DNA from: an uncultured Methanosarcinales archaeon
Lineage (GTDB): Archaea > Nanobdellota > Nanobdellia > Woesearchaeales > JAGVZT01
Direction of reading: 5' to 3'
DNA: 41,927 nucleotides
NCBI GenBank assembly: GCA_964419615.1
Contig: CAYQPU010000011.1
Span: 1-41,927, forward strand
The first letter of the stretch is position 1; every line of letters begins with the position of its first letter. The notes beneath the pieces are model-generated. The model did no database searches, had not been told where the DNA came from, and saw only the letters and a program-made list of their open reading frames with translations. A program made the position numbers and the translations under genes. Of the stretch, positions 4,289 to 5,695 are shown in pieces.

Positions 4289-4870
4289 ATGAATATGCAA
4301 ATCACATCTCCACAATTAATTGGTGAAGTAAAATCATTAGAATGTGGACATTTTCTTTATTTTTGTGCTTTTTATCCTGAAATTGATAAGGATATATCTA
4401 AAGATATATTTCAAACTGCAATGACAGAAATTGGTGATGGTACTAGACAGATTGGATTATATAAAATCCTCCAAAAACAAAATCTATCTGATAAAGAGAT
4501 CAAATCATGGTTACCAACAAGAAGTATTCTCTTAAGTCAATCACTTTATCAAGAAGAAATAGATGAACTCAGTTATTTAGCACACCAAGGATTAGTTGAA
4601 AATGGACTCAATCCAGATCTAGTAGAATTACACTACTTTGAAGACTTTGGAAACAGAGCAAATTTTGCTGTGTATTTTGACCTACACAAAGACATCAAGC
4701 AGATCCTGGAAAAAATGGAAACTGTAATGGATATTGATGTTGTTAGAGTAGAAGAAACAGGAAGGTATTTTCAACACATATTCAAATGTTATGAATCAGT
4801 TTCACCAGGAATGTATTCTGAATTATTTGTAAAAGCAGCCTATAGAATTCCATGGGATTTGTATGAATAA
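4289..4870 (+). CDS. Hypothetical protein
   Basis: 193-aa ORF; ATG about 23 nt after the TATA start (likely leaderless); no family recognised. Confidence 0.6.
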   Translation: MNMQITSPQLIGEVKSLECGHFLYFCAFYPEIDKDISKDIFQTAMTEIGDGTRQIGLYKILQKQNLSDKEIKSWLPTRSILLSQSLYQEEIDELSYLAHQGLVENGLNPDLVELHYFEDFGNRANFAVYFDLHKDIKQILEKMETVMDIDVVRVEETGRYFQHIFKCYESVSPGMYSELFVKAAYRIPWDLYE

Positions 4871-4873
4871 AAA

Positions 4874-5022
4874 TCCCCTCTCCCAGAAATCCCCAGAAAT
4901 TGTGAACAACTTCTGTTTTGAACTGGGAACCTTTCGGTCACGGCTGGCAAGTTTTCATTGTTTCTTAATAGAACCTCAACTTGCACCTACAGCCGAACGC
5001 TCTGCCGTTGAGCTAAGAGGGG
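4874..5022 (-). tRNA. tRNA-Tyr: tRNA-Tyr(GTA) with two introns (4939-4986 at position 37/38; 4888-4916 at position 59/60); CCA not encoded
   Basis: Minus strand: acceptor CCCCTCT/AGAGGGG+A73 (C1:G72, archaeal Tyr identity), D-arm GCTC-AACGGCA-GAGC, anticodon arm TTCGG-CTGTAG|A-CCGAA, variable loop AGGTT, T-arm CCCAG-TTCAAA|T-CTGGG. Removing a 48-nt and a 29-nt insert gives a perfect cloverleaf. Confidence 0.93.
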
Positions 5023-5046
5023 CTAAGTAAAAGTATTAATAAACCA

Positions 5047-5054
5047 TATATAAA
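5047..5054 (-). promoter_or_regulatory. TATA box of tRNA-Tyr
   Basis: TTTATATA on the minus strand ending 25 nt upstream of tRNA position 1. Confidence 0.7.
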
Positions 5055-5072
5055 TATTATGGATAATAAGCA

Positions 5073-5225
5073 TGGTTAGCACTACCCTGGCCAGATAAGT
5101 GAGCGAGACCATAATCATCGTAAGAAACAATAAGGTGCAGTTTGTCAAATCTTAGGATAAATTTAGATTGGTTTTGCTAGTAAGCTAACAAAATGTCGAG
5201 TGAACAGGCCCGGCAGTGCTAACCA
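5073..5225 (-). ncRNA. Unassigned structured RNA candidate (~153 nt)
   Basis: Perfect 11-bp terminal helix TGGTTAGCACT/AGTGCTAACCA extended by a GC-rich helix, plus three internal hairpins that use G-U pairs only on the minus strand. No ORF. Confidence 0.6.
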
Positions 5226-5250
5226 AAGAACAAAGTAAAAAACCCAATTA

Positions 5251-5316
5251 AAAAGAAAACCTTAAATACGACTTAATTGATCCAAACAAAATTCTCATGA
5301 ATAACAGTGGGAGGTG
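5251..5316 (+). promoter_or_regulatory. BRE/TATA promoter and SD for the 14-aa micro-ORF
   Basis: AAAAGAAAAC-CTTAAATA (5251-5268) and GGGAGGTG (5309-5316), 5 nt before ATG 5322. Confidence 0.55.
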
Positions 5317-5321
5317 CACAA

Positions 5322-5366
5322 ATGAGCTTTGAAAACAAAGAAATGGATGATCTTGAGGAATGGTGA
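5322..5366 (+). CDS. 14-aa acidic micropeptide MSFENKEMDDLEEW
   Basis: Below the ORF-track cut-off; perfect SD, upstream TATA, downstream hairpin plus T-tract. Confidence 0.5.
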   Translation: MSFENKEMDDLEEW

Positions 5367-5377
5367 TTAAACCTTTT

Positions 5378-5398
5378 AATAAGTAACTTATTTTTTTT
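5378..5398 (+). terminator. Hairpin plus T-tract after the micro-ORF
   Basis: AATAAG-TAA-CTTATT followed by TTTTTT, between convergent genes. Confidence 0.4.
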
Positions 5399-5425
5399 AT
5401 TCTGTTTGTTCAAGTATTCTATCAA

Positions 5426-5695
5426 TTATAAACCAAAATCATCAATAAACTTATTTATCATCTCATACTTATCCAAAAACTGAAAACCTTTATCAGTAAG
5501 ACTAATACATTTCCCTTTTTTATCTTTAACTTCTCTAATAAATTCCTTTTCCTTTAACTCTTCAAAATACTTAGCAAAACCTTGAGAAGAAAGATTAGAA
5601 TATCTAAGTAAAGGTGTTGGTTTAATTGAATTCTTCTTATCTCTGATAATTCTTAAAATATCATAAATCACTTCTAGTCTTTGTCTTTTCCCCAT
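5426..5695 (-). CDS. Archaeal winged-helix protein (COG3432-like predicted regulator)
   Basis: RQRLEVIYDILRII...KPTPLLRYSNLS...YFEELKEKEFI...ISLTDKGFQFL pattern. Confidence 0.75.
   Translation of the reverse strand: MGKRQRLEVIYDILRIIRDKKNSIKPTPLLRYSNLSSQGFAKYFEELKEKEFIREVKDKKGKCISLTDKGFQFLDKYEMINKFIDDFGL

Follow-up and report, generated by a model that had tools for sequence, protein, structure and literature searches.

[quoted passage not shown] The intergenic repeats Correia/NEMIS (Neisseria), ERIC, RUP and BOX measure ∼100–200 bp, and the whole body of each is a long imperfect hairpin. They are often mistaken for RNA genes, lie near promoters and can be co-transcribed, and effects at the RNA level have been shown for them (RNase III sites, promoters, terminators). 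The Sulfolobus MITEs SM3A and SMN1 are 164 and 320 bp long, respectively, and it is usual for MITEs to have no cognate transposase in their own genome (PMC3718332). IS1 leaves duplications of 8–9 bp and works in trans on DNA that has IS1 inverted repeats at its borders (PMC12903888); a preference of IS1 for AT-rich DNA is given in the title of a reference cited in the same paper.

Here we analyze a 153-nt segment of a Woesearchaeota genome that an earlier note had proposed, from the sequence, to be an orphan structured RNA, undescribed or highly diverged, encoded on the minus strand upstream of a tRNA-Tyr gene. The segment lies in the window, by which we mean the whole 41,927-nt stretch of DNA that was analyzed, and the window belongs to an assembly (G000) of 1.48 Mb in 64 contigs that is 99% complete. 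The only congener is Ca. Woesearchaeota SuakinDeep_MAG79_5 (G001). We find that the segment is quite probably a relic copy of a MITE family of one Woesearchaeota lineage that has a conserved foldback core and, in the sister species, IS1-like ends.

Fold of the Window Copy and Search for Known RNAs

On the plus strand, positions 5073–5083 (TGGTTAGCACT) are the exact reverse complement of positions 5215–5225 (AGTGCTAACCA), which is the perfect 11-bp terminal helix previously described, and the sequence also bears out its inward continuation, by way of a 1 × 2 internal loop, into GGCC/GGCC (5089–5092/5207–5210). The 153-mer folds with −48.4 kcal/mol (z = −5.31) as the minus strand and with −49.0 kcal/mol (z = −4.40) as the plus strand, and none of 200 shuffles matched the fold on either strand. 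The segment is without coding capacity, its sole overlapping open reading frame having 41 codons and a TTG start, and a conserved peptide is ruled out because the center of the family described below is hypervariable.

None of the 4227 Rfam families searched (release 15) matches the window copy, either at the gathering score or at E ≤ 1. A scan of positions 4750–5450 returned only noise (E ≥ 2, searched to E ≤ 10), and the whole window returned nothing at gathering scores. The SRP RNA, RNase P RNA and 5S rRNA genes of G000 are all present on other contigs, away from the window copy. On both counts the segment is without SRP, RNase P, 5S or tRNA identity, as had been supposed. A diverged form of a known RNA (SRP, RNase P, 5S, tRNA-like, riboswitch, C/D or H/ACA guide, TnpB omega-RNA, IS110 bridge RNA or an intron cut at a bulge-helix-bulge) is hardly credible. 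The terminal helix and a GAUGA that resembles part of a C box would fit such a class, but these searches speak against it, no TnpB was found in either species of the genus, neither a D box nor an ACA box is conserved, and the part that varies lies inside the element and lacks targets. As for individual motifs, an ACGAUGA is present that could belong to a K-turn, C/D or H/ACA RNA, but no conserved CUGA or ACA partner accompanies it. A bulge-helix-bulge intron was dropped since the unpaired 1 nt and 2 nt beside GGCC are on the same side, which is the wrong geometry.

A Rare and Patchy Repeat Family of One Order

The segment is not an orphan. BLAST against G000 returned diverged look-alikes, and rounds of nhmmer, repeated to convergence, gave 25 copies, of which 24 are full length; all are intergenic, and they are spread over 20 contigs; the window copy itself is hit with 133.3 bits (E = 1e-38) in the family searches with nhmmer and a covariance model (CM). 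The covariance model R1 detects the family in G000 and in the congener (∼30 good hits), and in none of 6 other genera of the taxonomic family and none of 33 other families of the order. A sample of 150 genomes of the order contains diverged relatives in G150 (8 copies, in another family) and G122 (a single GC-rich copy), and a broader model, R2, run over 150 genomes of the class, added one weak hit (G288, same order), so that three further genera in the order have diverged copies, 8, 1 and 1 in number. Outside the order there were none among the class-level genomes searched. Altogether the sampling covers about 240 genera, 143 of them in the order-level sample. An exact core pattern was also run against 185,579 species genomes, a scan that may not have included the genome of the window; it gave 14 hits in G001, the sole genome with multiple hits, and four single hits in unrelated bacterial genomes, which is about the chance rate. 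Eighteen matches to the core pattern in JGI metagenomes were all rejected as unrelated GC-richer repeats without a CM match. The family is rare and patchy within one order.

We note that the relative in the distant genus G122 (L120:201-344; G122:C33:8402-8545) has 64% GC and retains P2 (CCGTTTTCC/GGAAAACGG) and the TCTCACGAGG...GGCTCGCTCGC motifs despite its differing base composition. In two congener copies, L069 (G001:C50:∼82200-82510) and L068 (G001:C47:∼71350-71690), the loop encloses, or has given way to, a further structured element of higher GC content (...GGAACTTGCAAGATCCTTGCAAACACCAGTGGTTCAC...).

A Conserved Core Supported by Covariation

All copies share one architecture (Table 1), in which a closing helix of variable, covarying sequence (P1) is followed by the invariant GGCC/GGCC, a joining segment (J), a second helix (P2) with a loop of ∼40 nt, and a conserved unpaired 3′ region.

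Table 1. Positions in the window of the element, its parts and its neighbors
Feature	Position	Strand	Basis
Whole element, one copy of a ∼150-nt repeat family	5073–5225	− (orientation of the family model)	nhmmer and CM hits; fold z −5.3
P1, 5′ arm of closing helix; sequence differs among copies, pairing kept	5212–5225	−	alignment A1, columns 3–16
P1, 3′ arm of closing helix	5073–5086	−	alignment and pair counts
GGCC, 5′ half of invariant 4-bp helix	5207–5210	−	GC/GC/CG/CG in 22–24 of 24 copies
GGCC, 3′ half of invariant 4-bp helix	5089–5092	−	pair counts
J, conserved 11-nt joining segment nGTTCnnnnGn, two sequence classes	5196–5206	−	alignments A1, A2
P2, 5′ arm, CAUUUUGUU in window copy; family consensus CAGUUUGYU	5187–5195	−	97% of cells paired
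P2 loop, hypervariable, AT-rich, ∼40 nt; length kept, sequence not	5147–5186	−	pairwise identity
P2, 3′ arm, GACAAACUG in window copy	5138–5146	−	alignment and pair counts
Conserved unpaired 3′ region, ∼45 nt, GYWCC-UUAUUG..UCUUACGAUGA..GUCUCGCUCAC	5093–5137	−	conserved columns in A1, A2, A4
Neighbor: tRNA-Tyr(GTA) gene with two inserts	4874–5022	−	ARAGORN call after in-silico insert removal
Neighbor: TTTATATA box, likely tRNA-Tyr promoter, between element and tRNA	5047–5054	−	read from sequence
Flank: AAAAGAAAACCTTAAATAC box, opposite side of element, conserved	5252–5269	−	comparison with congener

P1 comprises ∼13 bp, and each of 13 pairs shows two-sided changes somewhere in the family. P2 is a 9-bp helix with the consensus CAGUUUGYU/RRCAAACUG and compensatory changes from A-U to U-A or C-G and from U-A to C-G; it covaries further across genera (CAGTTTG/CAAACTG, CAGTTTT/AAAACTG, CCGTTTT/AAAACGG). 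Taken together, P1, GGCC and P2 are supported by RNAalifold and by explicit pair counts, with 93.9% of cells paired and two-sided changes at 17 of the 26 core pairs; none of 500 shuffles reaches the observed pairing, and slid controls reach 28–48%. The family therefore has what is expected of a structured RNA, a conserved secondary structure with compensatory changes. Conservation is uneven along the element: pairwise identity is 0.96 in GGCC, 0.9 in P2 and 0.38 in the loop (0.32–0.44 between syntenic pairs), and the flanks and outer repeats have eroded to noise.

Neither J nor the 3′ region takes part in any further supported helix, and for J no consistent pairing partner was found. One candidate pairing between the two, GUGAG/CUCAC, fits only one of the two sequence classes of J and was dropped. 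The J classes, GTTCGCTCGAC-like and GTTCGTGAGCC-like, resemble a short inversion of each other (A1 columns 22–32; window 5196–5206) and correlate with CTCGCTCAC versus CTCACTCAC in the 3′ region (A1 columns 120–131; window ∼5101–5112).

The internal hairpins of the earlier note do not belong to this shared fold. All three exist in the window copy, but across 24 paralogues their positions are 52.8% paired, which 93 of 500 shuffles attain, against 51.6% after shuffling, and the first of them competes with P2; they are accidents of the window copy. The search for homologs and covariation found both, and the homologs make up a dispersed repeat family.

Terminal Repeats, Target Duplications and an IS1-Type Gene in Relatives

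Many copies in the congener have an additional, outer inverted repeat, GGCAAAGTCAAC...GTTGACTTTGCC, and the GGCAAAGTCAAC terminal repeat occurs at 28 sites there against ∼3 for a control, with only the background level in G000. Perfect 9-bp direct repeats flank six congener copies (CTATAACTT, CTTTGTAGG, AAAGTTCTC, TCTCAATAA, CATTCTAAA and TATTTTACA); further copies have duplications matching at 7 of 9 positions or truncated ends, and several sit at sites that are uninterrupted in G000. These mobile members have inserted with 9-bp target duplications into AT-rich, promoter-proximal intergenic DNA. In G150 the closing helix is formed by the terminal repeat itself, TTGTCAACTTAAGG, and a target duplication matching at 9 of 9 positions (CCGATTCGA) flanks one of the copies. 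The family as a whole has properties of a MITE, being short, non-coding, dispersed in many copies and present or absent at orthologous sites, and members in the congener and in G150 have terminal repeats with a target duplication of fixed length as well.

The end of the element, GGCAAAGTCAACTTAATGTTAGC, aligns with both ends of Escherichia coli IS1A as read from NC_000913; in one example CAACTTAATGTTAG aligns with IS1A CAACTTATTGATAG (shuffle p = 0.0015). Only in the mobile members of the congener are IS1-like ends combined with an 8–9 bp duplication. The E. coli IS1A copy used here (NC_000913, 19796–20563) shows no target duplication. A gene with a DDE_Tnp_IS1 domain (70.5 bits), preceded by an InsA-type zinc-ribbon open reading frame, is present in the congener and not in G000. 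At this locus (L125:1197-1911; G001:C10:∼45780-46490) the InsA (zinc ribbon) and InsB (DDE_Tnp_IS1) frames are separated by an A-run. The gene has no recognizable terminal repeats and no ends that match the element, and judging from the sequence the locus looks like a degraded IS1 copy between a 266-aa open reading frame and a DeoC aldolase gene. No IS1 gene was found in the G150 assembly, although its copies include the one with a target duplication, and no TnpB/IS605, IS256, IS1595 or MULE transposase was found in G000 or in the congener.

An intact autonomous element with matching ends was not found in any of the four genomes, all draft metagenome assemblies (MAGs). Such assemblies often miss IS copies. 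A PF01609 open reading frame was rejected as a partner, being single-copy, syntenic in both species, devoid of terminal repeats or matching ends, and absent from G150 and G122; an autonomous parent beside solo terminal repeats was rejected likewise, the neighbors there being housekeeping genes only (radical-SAM, ProRS, peptidase). We note a single-copy 220-aa open reading frame, L073:1297-1959 (G000:C2:∼50856-51518), with a DUF4190-like N-terminus and a DDE_Tnp_1 domain. It is conserved at 81% DNA identity in the congener, where it is interrupted by TGA, has no terminal repeats, and may be a domesticated or decaying transposase.

We infer that the family was mobilized by an IS1-type enzyme. 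The mobile members of the sister species would move in trans by means of an IS1-family InsAB′-type transposase, and the 25 copies of G000, the window copy included, would be stranded. The sister species offer a contrast between live and dead, with transposase and intact ends in one and neither in the other, and the family would be tied to IS1-type transposition.

The tRNA-Tyr Locus and the Worn Copies of the Window Genome

The tRNA-Tyr gene beside the window copy was missed by Rfam and by ARAGORN, which calls no tRNA anywhere in the native window; after removal of the two inserts in silico, ARAGORN most often calls it tRNA-Tyr(GTA). The inserts interrupt the anticodon loop and the T-loop, respectively. 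The tRNA 5′ end at position 5022 agrees with the 50-nt spacing to the element reported earlier, and the orthologue in the congener is 88% identical, with the inserts included at least in part. The likely promoter block of the tRNA gene, CATATATAAATATTATG (window 5045–5061), is conserved in the congener, and in G000 the element sits exactly between this block and the conserved promoter-like AAAAGAAAACCTTAAATAC box. At the orthologous tRNA-Tyr locus of the congener the site is unoccupied: the AAAAGAAAACCTTAAATAC box is 38 nt from the tRNA promoter block, and no element separates the two. With positions 5073–5225 taken out, the flanks in G000 exceed this empty site by just 2 nt, too little to hold decayed outer repeats together with a 9-bp duplication. 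The window copy is a clean P1-to-P1 gain or loss, and it may have arrived, or have been lost in the congener, by a route other than IS1-type transposition. Its place between two promoter-like boxes would simply reflect that such DNA tolerates or attracts insertion.

The window copy has the P1 inverted repeat only; the outer repeat has 6 mismatches in 12 positions on each side, which is noise. Its best target-duplication score, like those of the other G000 copies, equals that of controls with mismatched flanks. Outer repeats are at noise level in all G000 copies except C9, where the left repeat has 1 mismatch and the duplication matches at 7 of 9 positions. Nearly all G000 copies thus lack outer terminal repeats and a detectable target duplication, and this stands against reading them as MITE relics. 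At the site shared by G000 C7 and G001 C48:11454-11632, where the flanks are homologous up to the element, the congener has perfect outer repeats and a duplication matching at 6 of 9 positions, whereas in G000 the outer repeats are reduced to a short, decayed remnant and the core is intact. Syntenic copy pairs of the two species are no more alike than random pairs, and because of this their orthology is unsure and selection in place is inseparable from repeated insertion at favored sites.

The loop, the flanks and the outer repeats have changed far more than the helices and motifs of the core, and this differential retention is not predicted by simple neutral decay of dead copies. There is a small, though by no means negligible, chance that the inner module, made up of P1 with any sequence, GGCC/GGCC, J, P2 with its ∼40-nt loop and the conserved 3′ motifs, is a functional unit, preserved at more than 20 loci by the host or by the element itself through purifying selection that outlasted the transposon ends. 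If the inner module is functional, the family would consist of small structured RNAs or protein-binding DNA foldbacks that a transposon has spread beside promoters, including those of tRNA-Tyr and SRP RNA. For a MITE relic, which we prefer, the inner fold could have been kept by selection on the transposing master copies, by quasi-palindrome correction at the DNA level or by selection in place. Template-switch correction of quasi-palindromes is an established mechanism.

RNA Gene or DNA Foldback

The minus strand had been chosen on the grounds that A-C mismatches of one strand are G-U pairs of the other. Over 40 copies from both species, G-U pairs number 46 and A-C mismatches 28, but 25 of the G-U pairs come from one column at the end of P2. 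Without that column the counts are 21 and 28, with 6 columns favoring G-U and 8 favoring A-C, and the strand call therefore fails family-wide. In G000 alone there is a weak trend of G-U over A-C (∼15 versus 7 outside one edge column and column 41/85). Where the neighboring genes are in tandem, the element is oriented 6 versus 6. TATA-like boxes lie 26–46 nt upstream of most copies, outside the element and at variable distance, and the DNA around the copies carries such boxes on both sides. The P2 loops have no excess of identity or complementarity elsewhere in G000, the longest matches being 13–16 nt, equal to shuffles, plus one 19-mer; a guide-RNA role of the loop was rejected, as it has no target matches in G000 beyond shuffles and is not conserved between syntenic copies.

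These observations bear on whether the copies are a genuine family of small RNA genes, in which a ∼150-nt transcript, closed by P1, would start from the nearby TATA box and the transposon ends would be a mere vehicle. We judge this improbable, and no likelier the corollary that the conserved J, P2 and 3′ motifs bind a protein. Much in the data is nonetheless what such genes would produce: the strong covariation of P1 and P2, seen again across genera for P2; a closing helix that can have any sequence, even that of the terminal repeat itself in G150, as is usual in RNA-gene evolution; the TATA-like boxes upstream of most copies; the weak G-U trend within G000; and the C7 pair, in which the outer repeats decayed and the core did not. 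However, the strand bias vanishes over both species, the boxes are outside the element in promoter-rich DNA, the upstream box at the window locus is present in the congener too, which has no element there, the loop is without target complementarity or conservation between syntenic copies, and so patchy a distribution is what one would expect of a parasite rather than of a host gene. Covariation alone is not specific to RNA because a DNA palindrome yields the same signal, and given the strand tests, the TATA boxes outside the element and the loops without targets, it can be read equally well as the upkeep of a DNA palindrome.

That the palindrome serves the host as DNA is a slim chance. In this case a foldback or cruciform with repeated CTCnCTC, GGCC and CAGTTTG/CAAACTG motifs would be the binding site of a host protein, with an insulating or architectural role between promoters. 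Gene context lends this some color, since 12 of the 25 copies in G000 are between divergently transcribed neighbors (11 gene pairs and the SRP RNA copy described below), against a single copy between convergent genes, with copies directly upstream of the tRNA-Tyr and SRP RNA promoters; the symmetry of the complementarity between strands, with no G-U bias, and the conserved unpaired motifs in J and the 3′ region would also fit. Yet no binding protein is known, the tRNA-Tyr locus of the congener works without the element, and an enrichment near promoters is equally expected from tolerance of insertion and from the AT-rich preference of IS1 as worded in a title cited in PMC12903888. The SRP RNA copy (G000:C3:32773-32928; L023/L052) is ∼55 nt upstream of its gene (C3:32984-33257) and so mirrors the tRNA-Tyr arrangement; at that site the congener has a rearranged family member with an intact terminal repeat (G001:C47:∼71350-71683).

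What stands of the proposed new RNA is a real, non-random fold that is backed by covariation and belongs to no Rfam family; against it, the segment belongs to a dispersed repeat with the hallmarks of transposition in its relatives, and the case for an RNA discovery fails. The body of the family is a foldback made of the P1 inverted repeat, GGCC/GGCC and the P2 inverted repeat around a ∼40-nt AT-rich spacer, and with such a body any copy resembles a structured RNA. A more general caution follows, namely that covariation alone can make a foldback transposon resemble an RNA gene.

Comparison with Known Systems

The family documents a MITE of a familiar class in Woesearchaeota, and our literature search found no paper on MITEs in this group. 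Correia/NEMIS, ERIC, RUP and BOX have a similar hairpin body and no known sequence relation to the Woesearchaeota family. Like IS1, as represented by E. coli IS1A, the family has target duplications of 9 bp, a preference for AT-rich DNA and ends that follow the pattern GG....(T/C)CAACTTA.TG.TAG, and the species in which the MITE looks active has InsA zinc-ribbon and InsB DDE genes. Unlike IS1, the element has no transposase and an interior unrelated to IS1, and a full-length IS1 with the same ends was not found.

The Sulfolobus MITEs are likewise short and ORF-less, with terminal inverted repeats, short direct repeats and tens of copies, and their transposase is supplied in trans, often in genomes without a working cognate transposase (PMC3718332). 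They differ in having the ends of ISC1058 or ISC1733, where the ends here are IS1-like, and in belonging to another phylum than the DPANN Woesearchaeota. To our knowledge there is no report of Sulfolobus MITEs that retain a covarying inner fold after loss of the outer repeats. In the Woesearchaeota family, old copies keep the covarying inner fold without outer repeats, and this fold, common to all copies and retained in the probably stranded ones, is the odd point of the family.
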